DNA of 51,484 nt, taken from a virus (lineage: Duplodnaviria; Caudoviricetes). Location: positions 1 to 51,484 of IMG/VR virus record IMGVR_UViG_3300048558_000096. The stretch is one strand, 5' to 3'. A model generated the notes under the pieces. It searched no databases. It saw only the letters and a list, made by a program, of their open reading frames with translations, and had not been told where the DNA came from. Shown in pieces: positions 1,194 to 51,179 of this stretch. The translations under genes and the position numbers were made by a program. Position 1 is the first letter of the stretch, and every line of letters starts with the position of its first letter.

Positions 1194-1628
1194 TCAGATT
1201 CTCCAGATAGCCAGAATCTCTCGGCGAAACTCAATCAAACTGGGCGGGTAGCCGTATTCCCCCATTATCTCGTCCAGCCAAAGCGACCCTAAGAGGGTTC
1301 GCGGCACCATTGCGCACACGGCCACAACGTCAGCTTCAACGTCCACTCTGCCATCTTGCCCGTAATGTCCATGAATCCCGCCAGGATGGAAAAGGTAATG
1401 CCCGATTTCGTGCCAGGCGCACTTGGTCTTTTCATGTCCGCGCAAGTCTCGGTCAATGAAGATTGTTGGCTCTCCATCGCAGGTCATATACAGTCCGCCT
1501 TCCGCGACCGAGTTTTCCTCGACTACGATGATGTTGTGTGCAGCGCAGTAGATATAGAAATCTTCGATGGTGTGGACTTTTACATTCCAAGCCGATGGCA
1601 TTCCTTGTAGAAACAAACTTCTTCTCAC
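1194..1628 (-). CDS. ImmA/IrrE-family metallopeptidase (anti-repressor protease)
   Basis: HEIGH zinc motif plus downstream EAD; next to integrase; GTG at 1628 with AGAGG upstream. Confidence 0.85.
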   Translation of the reverse strand: MRRSLFLQGMPSAWNVKVHTIEDFYIYCAAHNIIVVEENSVAEGGLYMTCDGEPTIFIDRDLRGHEKTKCAWHEIGHYLFHPGGIHGHYGQDGRVDVEADVVAVCAMVPRTLLGSLWLDEIMGEYGYPPSLIEFRREILAIWRI

Positions 1629-1899: not shown

Positions 1900-3894
1900 C
1901 TAAATACCATGCAATAAGGATTCCTGCCCAGAATACCTTTGCTTCTCCGCTTCAATTTCTTTTTTAACTCTCCTGCAGGCTTCTATATCGAGCAGAACTG
2001 TGCCTGCATGTCCCATTAGCAGGTCTGTTACCATTACAAACTTAGTCTTGGTATTAAAGGGCAATGCAGTCGAGTCGCTAATAAGAGTGGTCTTTTTGGG
2101 GATTACGGATTTGGTATGTTTTAATAGAGGTCTCGGCGAAAGCTCTACTATAGCGTCTTTTTTAGTTTTTAGCAGGCGCATTAACGGATAGGAATTTTCG
2201 AAAACGGAAAGGATAATTGCTTGTGACGAACGCGCAAAGCTTGATAATCTTACAGAGCGACCAATGTCGGTCCGTAGGTCTTTTATAGCACTACCGGCAT
2301 TTATTATTTCTTGAACAGCCTTCAGTGGAGAACTATTTACAGATGTGACCTTATCTAGATCCTTAGTGGATAGAAAGTAATGCCTCACCTTAAAGCATGC
2401 TTGCTTTCTTCTTTTCGTTTCATTCTCCGAAATATGAAGATCAGCCATGTCCTTATATGAGCTCTCAAAGTATGCTATAAAATCACATATGATTTTATAG
2501 ATAATCGACTTTCTAAAAGATTTGTAATCAATATCGTAACAAAGATCAAGAGTATTATAGTACCTATCGCTGTGATCACTTTGAGCCATCTTAAGCAATA
2601 TGCCTTCTTGATCCGCCTTCGAATCTACGCATATAAACTGAGCCGCAAAATAGTCTTGCAGTGACTTATGTGACCATCTGTAATAATCTCCATCTCGACT
2701 AAAGAGCGGCACCGTTTTAAGTAAATCGATTAAAAAGTCTGACTCTTTAAAGCTAAGTCCAGAACAATGCTCACGAGCCAACCGAAGATGCTTCAGTATT
2801 TCATCCTTTTCGTATTCAATTTTGCCCAGCTTAATCGTAGCAAAACCTAAAAAACGGAGTATTCTATGAAAGTCTTCAATGTCAAGTTTTGTATGCTTTG
2901 GGCGAACGTACGCACCGTCTTTGGTTAGATCGTGACACTCGAACAGGGAGTCATAAACTTGCCTGTAGAAAATGTGCTTTTTAAAAGGAATTGTGGGCTT
3001 ATATTCATAAGACTTATAAATAAGTGATACTAATAAGGGATTTGTCAGAAATTCCTGTATATTGCTCAGAGCTTCGCTTTCGATCTTAGCTATTATTTCT
3101 TTCGATAAGTCGCTGTCGTTGTCATATTTTCTTAGTAAGGTAAAGGCTTCTTCTTTATTTAAGGGCCGCATGTGAAACTCCTTAAAAGAGGAGAATGAAG
3201 CGAGTGCGCTCTCCGGTCTAGATGTGATCACGAATGAATTCTTGCCTGACCTTGAAATAAAGTCCTGCAAATCATTCACAACTGCCGTTCTATCGTCAAG
3301 TGGAATCTCATCAAAACCGTCAAGGAAAAATACAAAATCCCCTTTACGAATTAGCGCAAGGATGAGGTCTTGGTTAGGCTCTTCGTCTAACGGAGTAAGT
3401 TCCGATGTTATATGATTGAGAATTGCTTTACTGGCGCTAAGCTTTCTAAGGTCTATAAATACTGGTAGTCCCTTATTTTCTCGTACGCAAGCTAAAAATA
3501 GAAATTTCAATAAAGTAGATTTACCCATTCCCGCCGTGTCTGTAATAAGAATTCTGTTAAATTTAGGTATAAAATTGTCTTTGTAGCTATCAACTTTAAT
3601 AGCTGTGCCAGTAGCCCTTTTATCGGCCTCAACTGTCATGGGAATGTATAGGTCTTCCAACTTCTTCTGCTGATTTTGAAATACAAGAACGGTAAGGTAC
3701 GAATGTTTATCGTATGCTCTAGCTAAATACTCTTCAAATTTATTAGTAAAGCTGTGCCGAAGCAAATCACTGTCCGTGTCACTGCTTTTAAAGATTTTGA
3801 CGAGCTTTGGTTTTAGGCGAGTCTCAATTAAGGCCGATATGAAAGGTACAACAAGAGGGGCAATGTATTTTACATCGTCTGGCGTGATAGGCAT
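1900..3894 (-). CDS. NACHT-family (STAND) NTPase, putative anti-phage moron
   Basis: Walker A DTAGMGKST, Walker B FFLDGFDE, ITSR, NPLL and HKSLQDYFAA motifs; visibly AT-rich versus flanks. Confidence 0.88.
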   Translation of the reverse strand: MPITPDDVKYIAPLVVPFISALIETRLKPKLVKIFKSSDTDSDLLRHSFTNKFEEYLARAYDKHSYLTVLVFQNQQKKLEDLYIPMTVEADKRATGTAIKVDSYKDNFIPKFNRILITDTAGMGKSTLLKFLFLACVRENKGLPVFIDLRKLSASKAILNHITSELTPLDEEPNQDLILALIRKGDFVFFLDGFDEIPLDDRTAVVNDLQDFISRSGKNSFVITSRPESALASFSSFKEFHMRPLNKEEAFTLLRKYDNDSDLSKEIIAKIESEALSNIQEFLTNPLLVSLIYKSYEYKPTIPFKKHIFYRQVYDSLFECHDLTKDGAYVRPKHTKLDIEDFHRILRFLGFATIKLGKIEYEKDEILKHLRLAREHCSGLSFKESDFLIDLLKTVPLFSRDGDYYRWSHKSLQDYFAAQFICVDSKADQEGILLKMAQSDHSDRYYNTLDLCYDIDYKSFRKSIIYKIICDFIAYFESSYKDMADLHISENETKRRKQACFKVRHYFLSTKDLDKVTSVNSSPLKAVQEIINAGSAIKDLRTDIGRSVRLSSFARSSQAIILSVFENSYPLMRLLKTKKDAIVELSPRPLLKHTKSVIPKKTTLISDSTALPFNTKTKFVMVTDLLMGHAGTVLLDIEACRRVKKEIEAEKQRYSGQESLLHGI

Positions 3895-14104: not shown

Positions 14105-14175
14105 TGCAGGCGGGTGGCTGGTGCCACAGTGAGGCTCATAATCTCGCACTCCCGGTTCGATTCCGGCGTCTGCAA
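14105..14175 (+). tRNA. Atypical tRNA with CAT anticodon (Met/Ile2-like), no encoded CCA
   Basis: Acceptor TGCAGGC/GTCTGCA, D-arm GTGGC-TGGT-GCCAC, anticodon arm GTGAGG-CTCATAA-TCTCGC, T-arm CCGG-TTCGATT-CCGG. Confidence 0.7.
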
Positions 14176-46022: not shown

Positions 46023-46367
46023 ATGGCTACTTATACAAAAGTAAAACTGTCTGGCAGCACGGACGGACGCGGCGTAAAGATCACAACGACGGGGTCGCCG
46101 GGTGATCTGATCCATGAAGCACATCCAACAAGCTTGGATGAAATCGTTCTGAGCGCGTGGAACAAGGATTCCAGCGATCACACGCTGACGATCCAATTTG
46201 GCGACAACGCAGACTTGATGCCCGTGGTCGTGCCTGCGGGCGTGGGAGTAATACTGGCCGTACCTGTTGGGGCGCACGCGATATTGACGAACTCACTCCC
46301 TGTGCGCGCCTACGCGGATGCGGCGAATCATATTTACGTCGTCGGCTGCGTCAACCGGATAACGTAA
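46023..46367 (+). CDS. Small tail-associated protein
   Basis: MATYTKVKLSGSTDGR..DEI.L.A.N..G.VNRIT; GGAG RBS. Confidence 0.65.
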   Translation: MATYTKVKLSGSTDGRGVKITTTGSPGDLIHEAHPTSLDEIVLSAWNKDSSDHTLTIQFGDNADLMPVVVPAGVGVILAVPVGAHAILTNSLPVRAYADAANHIYVVGCVNRIT

Positions 46368-46454: not shown

Positions 46455-48128
46455 ATGAAGTTTGAAGTATTACCGTTGGGCCATGCCAGCAAGCGGGGAG
46501 TATTTTTCGGAATATTCTTGGTCGTTCTTGCTAGTCTTGCGCAGGCTCAGACTCTGACCACAAATCTGCAAATCCCCAAACCAACCGTCGGCGCGCCGAT
46601 TCCGCAGACGCAAAGTACATTGCGCACGGCGCTGGATCAGCTTGATTCGGCGACGGCCGGGAGATTGAGCAAGTCGGTTGCCGGCGGCTCGGACGTCACG
46701 CTGACGACAACCGAAGCGCGCAACGCGGTGCTGGAATTCACCGGGATACTGACCGGCAACATCAACGTGATCGTGCCGACGAAGGCGCGGAAATACATCG
46801 TCTACAACAACACGACCGGCGCGTTCACTCTGACGGTAAAAACATCCGGCGGCACCGGGATCGCAGTTACACAGGCAACTCGCGTCTGGCTCTACTGTGA
46901 CGCTACGAACGTCGTGCAGCTCGACGCCGGCAGTACGGGTGCAAACTCCGCGCTGAGTAATCTGGCCAGCGTCTCGATCAATACATCGCTGCTCGCTCAG
47001 GCCGGCGTTGACCTTGGCTCGACCCTGAAGCCGTTCCGCGATCTGTACCTGTTTGGGGGCGGTACGTATGGGACGAACTACTTCAAGATCACCGGGACAC
47101 CGACGGCTGCCCGCGTCTTTACGCTGCCCGACTTGGCCAGCAGCACCTTTGCTCTGATTGCCGGCGCGCAGACCTTCAGCGGGAAGGTATTCGACAATAC
47201 GAACATCTTCAATAGCTACCACGACGTGACACGCATCGTCGCGCCATCGAACCCGGCCAGCGGCAGTCTTCGGTTATTTGCCAACAATGCTACCGGCAAG
47301 CTGGCGTGCCTGGATAGTTCCGGCGCCGACTGTATGCCGTCGGGCGGCGGAGGTGGCGCACCGGCGCTATCGGCAGTCACTGATCCAACCGGCAATTGGT
47401 CGCTGGCAATGGGAGCAAACCTGGTCACGCTTACGTGGGCAGGGAATTACGGTTCCTCCACAGCGTGGAAATTCGCAGGAAACAACACCTCTGCAACCGG
47501 GCCACTGGTCGAGATCAATACCGGGATCGGCAACAACCAGGTGCCGTTTCTGGTCGGTTCGCGCGGCGGGCAGGCCCTGAAGACGGACGTGCTAAACAAC
47601 GTGATCATCGGGCAAACGGGCGGAATGTCCGGCAGCGCAACTGACGGCTTTCCTATGATTCCGTACATCAGCTCAAACGGCGAGCCGAGCGGAACTCCGT
47701 CGCTTGGCTCTGGCGCGATCGCTCTCGAAAATGACGGGATCTTCGGAGAATATCGTCTCTGGGCATACCTCAACAGCGCCTGGCGACTGTTGACGCCAAC
47801 AGGCCGCCTGTATGACTCGCAAAGCGGTACTGGCGCGCAAACGATTGATTGGAGTCTCTCCCGCGAATCAATCGCAACTCGCACGTTGAGCATGACAGGG
47901 AACGTGACACTGACATTTACGTCACCGCTGAAGTCGGGGGTCATCGTGACATTAGTGCTGGTGCAGGACGCGACGGGCAGCAGGCTGGCGACCTGGCCAG
48001 CATCCGTGAAGTGGCCGAGCGGGACGGCTCCCACGCTGAGCACTGGCGCAAACAAGAAGGACGTTTTTCAATTCGTATGGGATGGCACAAATTATTACTC
48101 GCTGTCTCAATCAATTGACGTAAGGTAA
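46455..48128 (+). CDS. Tail fibre with N-terminal signal peptide
   Basis: ..GVFFGIFLVVLASLAQA-Q, TTNLQIPKP anchor-like segment, C-terminal QDATGSR..WP..VKW..GTAPTLST..D.F.F fibre-tip domain. Confidence 0.8.
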   Translation: MKFEVLPLGHASKRGVFFGIFLVVLASLAQAQTLTTNLQIPKPTVGAPIPQTQSTLRTALDQLDSATAGRLSKSVAGGSDVTLTTTEARNAVLEFTGILTGNINVIVPTKARKYIVYNNTTGAFTLTVKTSGGTGIAVTQATRVWLYCDATNVVQLDAGSTGANSALSNLASVSINTSLLAQAGVDLGSTLKPFRDLYLFGGGTYGTNYFKITGTPTAARVFTLPDLASSTFALIAGAQTFSGKVFDNTNIFNSYHDVTRIVAPSNPASGSLRLFANNATGKLACLDSSGADCMPSGGGGGAPALSAVTDPTGNWSLAMGANLVTLTWAGNYGSSTAWKFAGNNTSATGPLVEINTGIGNNQVPFLVGSRGGQALKTDVLNNVIIGQTGGMSGSATDGFPMIPYISSNGEPSGTPSLGSGAIALENDGIFGEYRLWAYLNSAWRLLTPTGRLYDSQSGTGAQTIDWSLSRESIATRTLSMTGNVTLTFTSPLKSGVIVTLVLVQDATGSRLATWPASVKWPSGTAPTLSTGANKKDVFQFVWDGTNYYSLSQSIDVR

Positions 48129-48132
48129 TAAC

Positions 48133-48203
48133 AAAAGTAAAGCCGGACTTTCGCCCGGCAGGTTCAGCGGCAGCCAACTCAGCTTAAGAATGCGCCGCTA
48201 GTT
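48133..48203 (-). ncRNA. Candidate small RNA 1
   Basis: TTGACA-16 bp-TAGAAT (48237 to 48210); TAGCGGC/GCCGCTG stem with 22-nt loop; GCCGGGCGAAAGTCCGGC-TTTACTTTT terminator. Confidence 0.65.
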
Positions 48204-48260
48204 GGCGGGATTCTACACCTCGAGCTGTTGATGTCAAAGAGTTTGAAGCCACCAGAAATG

Positions 48261-48299
48261 AAAATATTGGGGCTAACCAGAAGCCAGCCCCAATATTTT
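48261..48299. terminator. Bidirectional-type terminator
   Basis: AAAATATTGGGGCT/AGCCCCAATATTTT 14-bp inverted repeat. Confidence 0.75.
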
Positions 48300-48315
48300 G
48301 AAAGACGGAATCAGG

Positions 48316-48867
48316 TTATTTCAGTTCTGTCAGTGAGATGTTATCAAGCTGCACTGATCTACCCAGGCCACCCGGATTTGTGAGCCTGAAAATGAGTAAC
48401 GGGGTTGTTCCATAACCTGATGGGACATAAAAATCATAGATCAGCTCAGTCCCAACAAATGTCGGTGTAAGCGGAATGCTATAAGTTATCGGCGTGCCGC
48501 CGTCATCAATTTCCGCTTCAAGGGTCATCCCGCTGGGGCGACTGGTGGTATAGCCAAGAGCAAGCCGATAATATCTATCAGCCGTAATAGAAATCGTCCG
48601 GTCAATTGAGACAATGCCTCCAGTGGAGGGGGTGGACATAACGCACACATTTCCGACTAACGGCGCGCTCAAAGTTGTTGTTTGATTCGTGGCCGAAGTG
48701 AGGGGAGGGGCGGTGACATTCCATCCAGCCATGCCGCTGCCACTTGGAAAATCACTATTACTGGTTACAAGGTTAGCGCCCTGAGCCAGCGCGAAAGACG
48801 CCCCGGCCGTAAGCAACAGAAAAGTAGCGACGATAGACAAAGCTGTCCTATTCAGATTGAACTTCAT
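48316..48867 (-). CDS. Secreted beta-sandwich (carbohydrate-binding-module-like) moron protein
   Basis: Signal peptide ..SFALA-Q; NLV.NSDF..G..GW start and LDNISL end typical of CBM4/9-like folds; AAGGAG RBS. Confidence 0.65.
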   Translation of the reverse strand: MKFNLNRTALSIVATFLLLTAGASFALAQGANLVTSNSDFPSGSGMAGWNVTAPPLTSATNQTTTLSAPLVGNVCVMSTPSTGGIVSIDRTISITADRYYRLALGYTTSRPSGMTLEAEIDDGGTPITYSIPLTPTFVGTELIYDFYVPSGYGTTPLLIFRLTNPGGLGRSVQLDNISLTELK

Positions 48868-49497
48868 ATTTCTCCTTATAGATAGATTTAGAGTAGCAGG
48901 TGCCGCTTATGTGCTGCCGCATAGCAGTACCTTAACAGCACCTAGTTGAGGGGAAAGCTATCCCACAAAGGTCACACGTATCGCCTCCTGCCTGAAGCTT
49001 GGGGTTGCCCATTGCAGGTAGACGTAGTTGAGGAATAACTGACAATTGCACCACGCAAAAGGAATTGCGCGTTAAAGATCGTGGTTTAGGCTATGAGCTA
49101 AAGATCGTTTTGGAGGACAAGTTAGCAGAGGTAACTAAAAAAAGAGTTGTTGTGGCAACTTCTATATTTTTTTTATTTGGAGTGACCTGTAAGGCAGGAG
49201 GGTTATACTCCCCTAAAACTAACGGGTCAATACTGAAAATGACATCTTACGTGAATTAATTACCATGTAGGCATATCTTAAAGATCAGCGTCAGATAGTG
49301 AAGCCATCTCGTCAGATACTGAAGTTATCTTGTCGGATGACGGATTACAAGCTGGTAGGAGTGTGTCCATGTTGGCTATTCTACGATTTTTGCGTATACC
49401 TCGAATGCACAATTACTCGAAATTCGCGCCACCTCCGCCGCAGGCGAATTGGAGACAGACGGCGGAGTTTTGGTTCAGGTGAGGGCAGCGGCGGAGA

Positions 49498-49566
49498 CAG
49501 TAAAGCCGCACCTATTCGATGCGGCCCTCGGCAGCACAAACTTAACCAAACAAAAAGCTGCCAGTT
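49498..49566 (-). ncRNA. Candidate small RNA 3
   Basis: TTGACT-16 bp-TAAAAT (49600 to 49573); GGCAGC/GCTGCC stem with 21-nt U-rich loop; GCCGCATCGAATAGGTGCGGC-TTTAC. Confidence 0.65.
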
Positions 49567-49610
49567 GGGGGGATTTTAGACCGGCGGCTTGCAGAGTCAA
49601 GCTTTTCCGT

Positions 49611-49853
49611 TCAATCCGAAAACTCTTCTGGAGTGTCAAGGTCGGGCGGCGAAGGCGCTTGCTTCGGCTTGCTTCGCGCGGAAGACTTGCGCCCAGCGCT
49701 GATCTGTTTCAACTCGTGGTCAAAGTAGATGTGACACATGGGGCATCTCCACATTGGCGGCTGGCGATTCGCTGGATCAAGTTTTTGCTCGCACTCTGGA
49801 CACGGCGGGCCGTTGGTGAGGGTTGCGATTTCGGGAAGAGCGTTATCAGGCAT
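49611..49853 (-). CDS. Small zinc-ribbon protein
   Basis: CPEC..CPMC; AAGG before ATG 49853. Confidence 0.55.
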   Translation of the reverse strand: MPDNALPEIATLTNGPPCPECEQKLDPANRQPPMWRCPMCHIYFDHELKQISAGRKSSARSKPKQAPSPPDLDTPEEFSD

Positions 49854-49887
49854 TGCCTTTATATAACAGGTGGGATATAAGGCGCGC

Positions 49888-49957
49888 AAATGGCAGCGAT
49901 ACGTCGCTTGACACCTCGTGACGCTGCTGAAAGGCCGGGCGAAAGTCCGGCTTTATT
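49888..49957 (+). ncRNA. Candidate small RNA 2
   Basis: TTGCCT-17 bp-TATAAG (49853-49881); TGGCAGCG/CGCTGCTG stem with 23-nt loop; same 22-mer terminator as sRNA 1. Confidence 0.6.
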
Positions 49958-49996
49958 GCGCAAAGGACTCTGTTCAGTAGAGTCCGATAACAGCAC

Positions 49997-50662
49997 TTAC
50001 GTGGTGTTACCGGGCGACAGGCTGAGTAACTCCCATCGGTCAATCTCGGCCATCAATGCGCGGTGATTCCCAGCCTTTGCTAAATCAAGTGCGCGGGCAA
50101 ATGCCTGCACGCCATCGGATTGCTTATAAATTGTGTCCCGATAAAACGGACCGCGCAGGATGCGCCGAAGCAACGCCGCATCCTCTGGATCGTCATAGAT
50201 CACCTTCGGTCGCGTTCGCTCGTAGCTACTGGCGGCCTGCGTAACAATGGCAGCGTAGTTTGGAAGGCCAAGTTCGACGGCTTCTAGATCGCAGGCGTCA
50301 TAATCGCATTCGTGCACCAATTCAAAGTTAATTACAGTAGCATCGTTCGGGAAGAAGGCATCTAGTATTCGTCCGTCAAGGGCGTCCTGCTCGCGCCGCA
50401 TGCAGTCGCACTTGAAGGGACGCGGCACGTCGCCGGTCACGCACTCATGGGCATCGTGCAGGAAGCCCCACAGCAGGTTTATCGGCTCTTTTGAGCGTCT
50501 ATATGCCAGCAAGCCTACGAAGACAAGATGCGGCAGCAGCGGATACCAGACCGAACCACCAAAGCGACAAAGACGCCCGGCGTGTACGGCAATATCCATT
50601 GCGGTTGGCGTTCCTGTCGCGCCACCAATGGTCTGAACGTGGATTCCAGATTGTGTGATCAT
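49997..50662 (-). CDS. HD-superfamily phosphohydrolase (YfbR-like deoxynucleotidase)
   Basis: DIA....LCRFGG..Y....H, FLHDAHE..TGDVPRPFK, CD..A..LE. Confidence 0.8.
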   Translation of the reverse strand: MITQSGIHVQTIGGATGTPTAMDIAVHAGRLCRFGGSVWYPLLPHLVFVGLLAYRRSKEPINLLWGFLHDAHECVTGDVPRPFKCDCMRREQDALDGRILDAFFPNDATVINFELVHECDYDACDLEAVELGLPNYAAIVTQAASSYERTRPKVIYDDPEDAALLRRILRGPFYRDTIYKQSDGVQAFARALDLAKAGNHRALMAEIDRWELLSLSPGNTT

Positions 50663-50970
50663 CTCTCAGCCTCCAAGTGTGATAACGCGACGCATCCGGC
50701 CACGCCGCAAATCTCTTTCACTCTGACGCCTGGCGTCAGCACTTCCCCGGCCAGAATCAGCGCAGCGCGCGCCGGCGTTGTTACCAGATCATCGTCAATC
50801 CTGAATCTCGGCCCGCCCGTCCAAAGACGATGGGGCGTTGAGTCGGTCTCGACGGTGCGAATGAATGCAAGGAATCGAAGCGCGGCGTCGGTGATGGGCT
50901 TGGGCTTAATATCAACCCGCACACTGACGCCTTTGCTGTTTTGGCCGATGACGTAAAAGCTCATTGCCAC
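50659..50970 (-). CDS. Degenerate HNH-endonuclease-like protein
   Basis: LWTG..RAA..G..CG..GCV..SHL scaffold without the catalytic His/Asn. Confidence 0.5.
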   Translation of the reverse strand: MAMSFYVIGQNSKGVSVRVDIKPKPITDAALRFLAFIRTVETDSTPHRLWTGGPRFRIDDDLVTTPARAALILAGEVLTPGVRVKEICGVAGCVALSHLEAER

Positions 50971-51179
50971 ACCTTATTCGCTTTGCCGAAATCTTCGAGC
51001 AGTCGCGCCGTCATCAGTGGCACAGACACATCGAACAGTTTCGCCAACTCTTCTACTTGCTGGCCGTCGGTTAGATCGATTCTACCGCCAAGCTTCTCGA
51101 CTTCTTTTGCGAGCAGAGACGGCGGCACAAGCAGGTAGGCCGCGAAGATGTTCGCTTCGGCTTCTTCTTCGTTAGTCAC
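50961..51179 (-). CDS. ImmA/IrrE C-terminal half only
   Basis: EAEANIFAAYLLVP..LAKLFDVS....RL without HExxH; ATGA/GTGA-type coupling. Confidence 0.6.
   Translation of the reverse strand: MTNEEEAEANIFAAYLLVPPSLLAKEVEKLGGRIDLTDGQQVEELAKLFDVSVPLMTARLLEDFGKANKVWQ

Follow-up and report, generated by a model that had tools for sequence, protein, structure and literature searches.

The window, by which we mean the whole 51,484-nt stretch of DNA that was analysed, is the 51.5-kb record of a temperate tailed phage encoding an integrase (1-1167), terminase, portal, capsid, tape measure and tail fibre. The phage DNA was present in bioreactor metagenomes. Three small RNA units and the genes around them lie at the locus under study:

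46455..48128, plus strand: tail-fibre gene (PHROG tail fibre, E = 8e-14), convergent with unit 1 and ending 5 nt from the unit 1 3' end
48133..48203, minus strand: unit 1 RNA, with stem arms 48199-48194 and 48171-48166, a 22-nt loop and a terminator-like hairpin (48159-48142)
48210..48237, minus strand: sigma70-type promoter of unit 1 (-35 48237-48232, 16-nt spacer, -10 48215-48210; 11/12 consensus matches)
48316..48867, minus strand: 183-aa ORF without a family, flanked by units 3 and 1; it has a terminator of its own (48299-48261), and its N terminus includes a hydrophobic stretch
49498..49566, minus strand: unit 3 RNA, with stem arms 49562-49557 and 49535-49530, an unpaired U/G-rich 21-nt loop and a hairpin (49525-49505)
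49573..49600, minus strand: sigma70-type promoter of unit 3 (16-nt spacer; 10/12 matches)
49853..49881, plus strand: promoter-like site of unit 2 (-35 49853-49858, 17-nt spacer, -10 49876-49881), read from the sequence
49888..49957, plus strand: unit 2 RNA, with stem arms 49892-49897 and 49923-49928 and a terminator-like hairpin (49934-49951)
49997..50662, minus strand: HD-type deoxyribonucleotide phosphatase gene (phrog_318, E = 8.7e-10), convergent with unit 2

The relatives of the capsid, the tail protein and the tail fibre point to a Blastocatellia host. The sole capsid relative with a taxon name was a Blastocatellia MAG (79%), the 953-aa tail protein had its sole genome relative in a Blastocatellales MAG (35%), and the tail fibre was 65% identical over 139 aa to that of a prophage in G567, a genome of the family described below. 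Since a capsid search of 301 class genomes gave three matches at 46-50%, only one of them inside the RNA-bearing family, the host family was not assignable from the capsid. In IMG/VR, the HD gene had no relatives and the tail protein matched the same phage only.

The initial annotation had placed three ~70-nt units here, and their coordinates, strands and loops were all reproduced. In every unit a promoter precedes a stem of 7-8 bp that covaries and closes a loop of 21-25 nt, followed by a terminator-like hairpin. Each folded as two hairpins on the predicted strand, with fold z-scores of -2.84, -4.19 and -3.07 for units 1, 2 and 3, against -0.48, -2.45 and -2.70 on the opposite strands. A descriptor made post hoc from the three units matched three times in the window, compared with a mean of 0.03 in 60 Markov simulations, and a fourth unit, looked for across the window, was not found. 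The near-consensus sigma70 promoters described earlier stood for units 1 and 3 but not for unit 2, whose site was absent from the consensus-scan list and has a -10 box without the last T. A fourth promoter-like site (10/12; 46327-46354, minus strand) lies antisense in a 114-aa tail gene, with no RNA unit after it. The units contain no ORF, as had been reported, and have the sequence features of stand-alone genes. A small ORF starting from an AUG in the loop was rejected, as the AUG was not invariant and no stop preceded the terminator. Units 1 and 2 do share an identical 22-mer in opposite orientation (48138-48159 and 49934-49955). By itself this is a generic terminator-like hairpin and was rejected as a marker of the family; 14 of its 15 IMG/VR matches were in unrelated low-GC phages without the first stem, and the fifteenth was a second record of this phage. 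RNA run X14 yielded three single-read contigs, all within the tail-fibre gene, and run X15 a single contig (48038-48216) that overruns both predicted ends of unit 1 and so gives no sign of a discrete RNA.

Homologues were sought with two covariance models, R1, built from the three window units, and R2, built from 15 sequences and biased to the canonical loop of the host copies. R1 detected chromosomal Blastocatellia copies and, on a related phage contig (L171), a unit that follows the tail-fibre genes and has a different loop. Within one Blastocatellia family, the GTDB family of G015, R2 found the RNA gene in 83 of the 87 genomes, at 1-10 copies each. The search of Acidobacteria and phage genomes that had been proposed thus located the family in these genomes and in eight other phage contexts. 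In a 151-genome sample of the class, with family membership taken from the 87-genome scan, R2 was positive in 37 of 39 members and in none of the 112 other Blastocatellia genomes. A pattern search of 401 genomes of the phylum returned seven matches, and the three with the family loop were family members. The 89 canonical copies parsed comprise 35 directly behind ligA, 50 in other places and four too near a contig end. The RNA gene is a core chromosomal gene of one Blastocatellia family, with its core copy behind ligA. Across 13 + 40 loci, the only shared neighbour gene was ligA, at the core locus.

The extra host copies occupy varied accessory contexts, often prophages and islands, and no linked toxin gene or tandem repeat array was found at the copies (the ORF lists of host loci began at 45-70 aa). 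The eight other phage or prophage contexts, all with the canonical loop, are L171, prophages in G567 and G122, two DarB-like loci in G140 and three IMG/VR records. The G140 copies (L426, L427) lie directly behind DarB-like antirestriction genes of 3,000-4,500 aa. In G561, five copies of the RNA gene lie within 3.8 kb (L311 11595-15347), beside an island behind tRNA-Pro; this second cluster resembles that of the window, with drifting loops, including intermediates, and one loop that is wholly different.

The initial annotation had not recognised the family, and Rfam held no match. The window gave 0 matches at gathering score, the units of seven host loci gave no family at E<=5 beyond weak terminator-level overlaps, and the mRNA leaders and further loci gave no match. 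Two scaffold patterns produced 34 and 37 matches in IMG/VR; apart from the second record of this phage, all were chance matches. Among other viral records related by capsid, R1 gave no match in 13, mostly fragments or distant, and R2 none in two of them; BLAST of 48100-50000 against 401 class genomes returned short matches only. No description of the RNA family was found in the literature searched, which excluded the supplements of RNA-motif surveys (e.g., PMC2864571) that could hold the motif. The family is real and apparently undescribed.

Covariation of the stem among homologues had been set as a test, and it was observed. In 15 sequences aligned without structure, with no pairing filter beyond the covariance model itself, the first stem was 96.7% paired and three of its eight pairs had changed on both sides. 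In the larger set (62 of 97 parsed sequences), seven of the eight pairs had changed on both sides; the parsing descriptor demands pairing, which makes the percentage paired in the 97 sequences circular. The first stem has no U-tail and is conserved in sequence as well as in pairing, and unit 1 carries a compensatory change in it. The family alignment places the -10 box at a fixed distance from the stem, 6-7 nt before the RNA, an arrangement that argues for a primary transcript.

The host loop ends in a near-invariant UGGCUGAGGA, which forms its 3' half. The nine loop positions GGCUGAGGA showed 96-99% identity per position in 89 copies, and the 5' half of the loop and the promoter spacer were variable among host copies. 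The loop motif was common to 89 of 94 parsed non-window copies, an invariance that is partly circular owing to the bias of R2. Five copies form a second subfamily, type B (L180, L200, L402 and L186, L358), located between 2-oxoacid:ferredoxin oxidoreductase and aldehyde/alcohol dehydrogenase genes or convergent on selB. A loop-blind pattern, which was noisy, and a rerun of R1 over the family (26/87 genomes) gave no certain evidence of any other loop class.

Perfect 12-18 nt complements of UGGCUGAGGA plus the adjoining stem arm were enriched in the intergenic DNA of the family genomes, and several lie 20-35 nt before start codons. The 12-mer complement (loop end plus arm) occurred 58 times in 10 family genomes (75.6 Mb), of which 11 were RNA genes, and 10 times in five other genomes of the class (39.3 Mb), four of them in one repeat protein. 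Fifty-two of the 58 sites were fetched, and 41 were analysed after nine RNA genes and two degenerate copies had been dropped. Eighteen of these were intergenic and 23 coding, compared with one and nine outside the family. The intergenic fraction gave a Fisher p of 0.07 and the intergenic rate a p of 0.004 (0.011 without the sites known beforehand), with an outside control of five genomes, crude gene calls and related genomes that are not independent. At the 23 coding sites, Ala-Ser-Ser-Ala codons account for the 12-mer. The complement extended by the next 5' base at 22 of the 41 sites and at 0 of 10 outside the family; after the removal of four sites that had guided the choice of genomes, the figure was 19 of 37 (p = 1.6e-4 against a context-matched background). 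Some intergenic sites may be decayed RNA genes, three being doubtful besides the two dropped. Before genes, the site was on the target strand only in seven cases, on the motif strand only in two and on both in two, and several loci had tandem sites.

An 8-nt complement placed before a Shine-Dalgarno (SD) sequence and ATG matched 78 times in 44 of the 87 genomes. Four of 40 SD-linked sites extended four bases into the stem arm, bases that were unseen at selection (p ~1e-4 to 1e-3). The longest sites measure 16-18 nt. Two dinB leaders have kept a 14-nt perfect complement, and in two genomes a site precedes a MacB/FtsX permease gene; the genes behind the sites range widely (DinB, TPR and other secreted proteins, MacB/FtsX permease, clostripain, Hsp20). 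The dinB-family leader (L445, L446, ~1530-1600, minus strand) is itself conserved, with a hairpin directly before the 14-nt site and no Rfam match. The canonical RNA gained -5.5 to -19.6 kcal/mol on co-folding with candidate leaders, compared with -1.4 to -5.2 kcal/mol for loop-shuffled controls, a gain that follows from the selection of complementary sites. In five of nine leaders with an SD, the site was predicted to pair with it (probability 0.52-0.79), and blocking the site raised the predicted SD accessibility, strongly in two of the nine and modestly in the rest.

A search of the 87 genomes with an 11-mer complement revealed no single target gene common to the family. Its matches were mostly the reverse strand of Met-Ala-Glu codons, and its design left out the best sites, those in which a G precedes the motif. 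A 10-mer variant with the G gave 18 matches in five genomes, compared with 23 for the control. Other pairing partners were rejected, including tRNA 3' ends (0/30 loci with a 10-mer complement) and rRNA (no better than shuffles, with 4 bp at the anti-SD). Heptamer CTCAG repeats were rejected as a source of the sites, being rarer in family loci than in controls. Pairing among the units, or with the canonical loop, was weak.

All three window copies carry altered seeds and have lost the canonical complement-pairing. The unit 1 loop keeps part of the motif and was nearer to canonical loops than shuffles were (p = 0.027), and the unit 2 loop was nearest to type B (p = 0.043), both values being marginal and uncorrected; the unit 3 loop resembles neither. 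The unit 1 loop probably derives from the canonical host loop. In position and terminator type, unit 1 matches the copy with the canonical loop that follows the tail-fibre gene in the prophage of G567. A copy of unit 3 (65/70), bounded at 49497-49566 and with unrelated flanks, was present in runs X1, X2, X4 and X13 (four of seven runs examined), with the same -10 hexamer kept on the other contig. A partial homologue of unit 2 (32/38 over 49876-49913) was present in runs X1 and X2, with the -35 hexamer at the same distance and a different spacer. These homologues lie on other contigs of the same samples at a depth close to that of the phage, which is compatible with one common host. The unit 3 loop had no exact match in IMG/VR. 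The loop variability in the window is a divergence of three paralogues within one phage.

A comparison of the loops with the phage genome for complementary targets, also proposed earlier, did no better than chance. The phage had no site within two mismatches, and the best duplexes of the units with 48 phage start regions were no better than shuffles (p = 0.28-0.91). In 1.29 Mb of fetched, non-random host DNA, none of the three phage seeds had an exact complement. On the candidate leaders, units 1-3 had co-folding gains of mostly 0 to -7 kcal/mol, with two exceptions near -12.

The excess of perfect complements in intergenic DNA, several of them before start codons, leads to the reading that the canonical RNA is likely a base-pairing sibling sRNA, controlling genes by pairing with their mRNAs. 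With modest confidence, we take the three units to be phage-borne paralogues of this family-core sRNA, whose changed seeds would redirect them to other host mRNAs. The pairing region of the host RNA would be the 3' half of the loop together with the neighbouring stem arm, pairing presumably nucleating in the loop before the stem opens. Transcription in lysogeny would proceed from the constitutive-looking promoters. Hfq, found in five of five family genomes, may assist the pairing; the U-tails, short in units 2 and 3, are short for an Hfq-bound RNA. Where the site is predicted to pair with a downstream SD, the models hint at activation by an anti-antisense step. The phage copies would pair with other host mRNAs.

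Similar known systems include the trans-acting base-pairing sRNAs with seeds displayed in loops, among them the activators DsrA and RprA (rpoS) and RyhB (shiA), which likewise are short structured RNAs with an own promoter, an intrinsic terminator and Hfq in the host. They differ in having no sequence or Rfam relation to the present family, whose sites are 12-18 nt, perfect and in need of the stem arm. In the accessible part of PMC13501541, anti-antisense activation involves a site upstream of the SD that pairs with the SD, as do several sites predicted here. Compared with Hfq-type sRNAs in general, an own promoter, an intrinsic terminator and the lack of an ORF were found at sequence level, and a conserved single-stranded seed was found in the host copies, in contrast to the changed seed of the window copies. 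Sibling sRNAs such as the Vibrio CsrB copies and NgncR_162/163 combine several copies, one motif and different promoters, according to the portions available of PMC6262261 and PMC9973317. The present family is similar in its several copies per genome, conserved motif and different promoters, but its extra copies are often on prophages or islands and CsrA is mostly absent (present in 21 of 87 family genomes, compared with 83 for the RNA).

Prophage sRNAs that act on host mRNAs include the Pas sRNAs, svsR, PreS and DicF (10.64898/2026.05.13.724894, PMC12803456 and PMC12197685, each as far as its accessible text goes). The window copies are likewise phage-encoded and in accessory regions, their regulation of the host being putative. 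In the same partial texts, those RNAs are described as phage-derived, whereas here a core chromosomal gene is carried by phages, with a canonical or a changed seed. Phage PhiTE has several copies of a host-like RNA, pseudo-ToxI, that mimics a host antitoxin (PMC3475682, in part). The window shares the several copies of a host-like RNA on a phage; unlike PhiTE, it has no tandem repeat array and no linked toxin, and its copies have lost the host motif. Three further classes were rejected. A CRISPR-like guide or solitary repeat does not fit a loop motif shared by 89 of 94 copies, with no hypervariable spacer or linked effector gene; a CsrB/RsmZ sponge does not fit the single GGA of the canonical RNA, its lack in units 1-3 and the distribution of CsrA; and neither an adjacent toxin gene, among host-locus ORFs of at least 45-70 aa, nor a tandem repeat array was found for a type I or type III antitoxin RNA.

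An unlikely alternative is that the stem and UGGCUGAGGA bind a host RNA-binding protein or nuclease, in the manner of a CsrA-like sponge or an antitoxin mimic, and that phages titrate it, the window copies keeping the scaffold only. The up to 10 siblings per genome, the repeated carriage on phages and defence-island-like loci, the sequence conservation of the stem and the failure to find a family-wide target gene are in keeping with such a decoy. It is opposed by the scarcity of CsrA and of GGA noted above and by the lack of a linked toxin or partner gene, and it predicts no excess of complementary sites on the mRNA strand.

We think it slightly more doubtful that the stem scaffold is the handle of a dedicated host protein, with the loop and arm as a programmable guide reading 13-18 nt mRNA sites, and that phages reprogram it by new loops, three of them here. 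By the standard of bacterial sRNAs, the sites are long (up to 16-18 nt) and perfectly matched, the scaffold is conserved in sequence, and a single scaffold bears four loop types, of which two recur on other contigs. However, the loop is near-invariant in the 89 copies, intermediates connect the loop types in a way that resembles drift from a single ancestor, and no partner gene lies near any copy examined. Pairing also enters the stem arm, and a bound protein would keep that arm closed. Of the guide-like or antisense-like role suggested earlier, antisense is the part that appears most likely, and the variable guide was not supported. If true, the dedicated-protein reading would mean a so far unknown RNA-guided regulator in this Blastocatellia family.

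It is decidedly improbable, in our estimate, that the host RNA is functional and the three phage copies are drifting duplicates without a current target. Other phages keep the canonical seed that these three have lost, and no targets were found in the phage or in the 1.29 Mb of host DNA. On the other hand, units 1 and 3 have near-consensus promoters, the stem of unit 1 changed in a compensatory way, and loops of the unit 2 and unit 3 types are kept on other contigs with unrelated flanks (32/38 and 65/70).

There is very little to recommend the view that the hairpins are only terminators or DNA-level elements (a repeat, a small mobile element or a protein-binding site) and the sites decayed copies. 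Units 1 and 2 do face convergent genes, the second hairpin is generic terminator-like sequence and a few sites resemble degenerate copies. Against this, the -10 box keeps its distance before the stem, the first stem, which lacks a U-tail, shows covariation, the homologous stretches on other contigs end at the predicted RNA ends, and the sites favour the mRNA strand before genes (seven versus two, with two both).

The P4 CI RNA is a small phage RNA with its pairing sequence in loops, and the c4 and CI immunity RNAs are cut by RNase P from a longer transcript. P1/P7 c4 RNA, in the available part of PMC12197685, also carries its pairing sequence in loops. The initial annotation had likened the units to these RNAs, but that they repress lytic genes of this phage or of competitors is hardly credible despite the temperate phage location and loop-displayed seeds, given the absence of an Rfam match and of own-phage sites beyond chance, the promoter directly before the RNA, the chromosomal, host origin of a core gene and the lack of a travelling partner gene.

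Under the preferred reading, that of phage-borne paralogues of a pairing host sRNA, an uncharted Acidobacteriota family gains a putative core regulatory RNA with candidate target sites. The findings also show repeated acquisition of a core host sRNA gene by phages, with the seed retained in some and three changed seeds in this one. Should the changed seeds have targets, the phage would offer a clear example from nature of a host sRNA network being rewired by phages through duplication and altered seeds. As a family-specific marker, the RNA can also be of use in matching phage contigs to their hosts.

Several further features of the phage record were noted. Between unit 3 and the 183-aa gene, in AT-rich DNA without ORFs, lies a tandem 21-nt direct repeat (86%; 49289-49330), possibly an operator or origin-type site. 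Two IrrE/ImmA-like peptidase sequences lie one near each end of the record (1194-1634 and 50961-51179, both minus strand), the latter spanning the C-terminal part of the domain only. A tRNA-Met(CAT) gene (14105-14175, plus strand) is situated among the replication genes. A low-GC island near the integrase encodes a NACHT NTPase with a SNaCT5 C-terminal domain (E = 4e-22; 1900-3894, minus strand), which looks like a prophage-borne anti-phage NLR-type gene.
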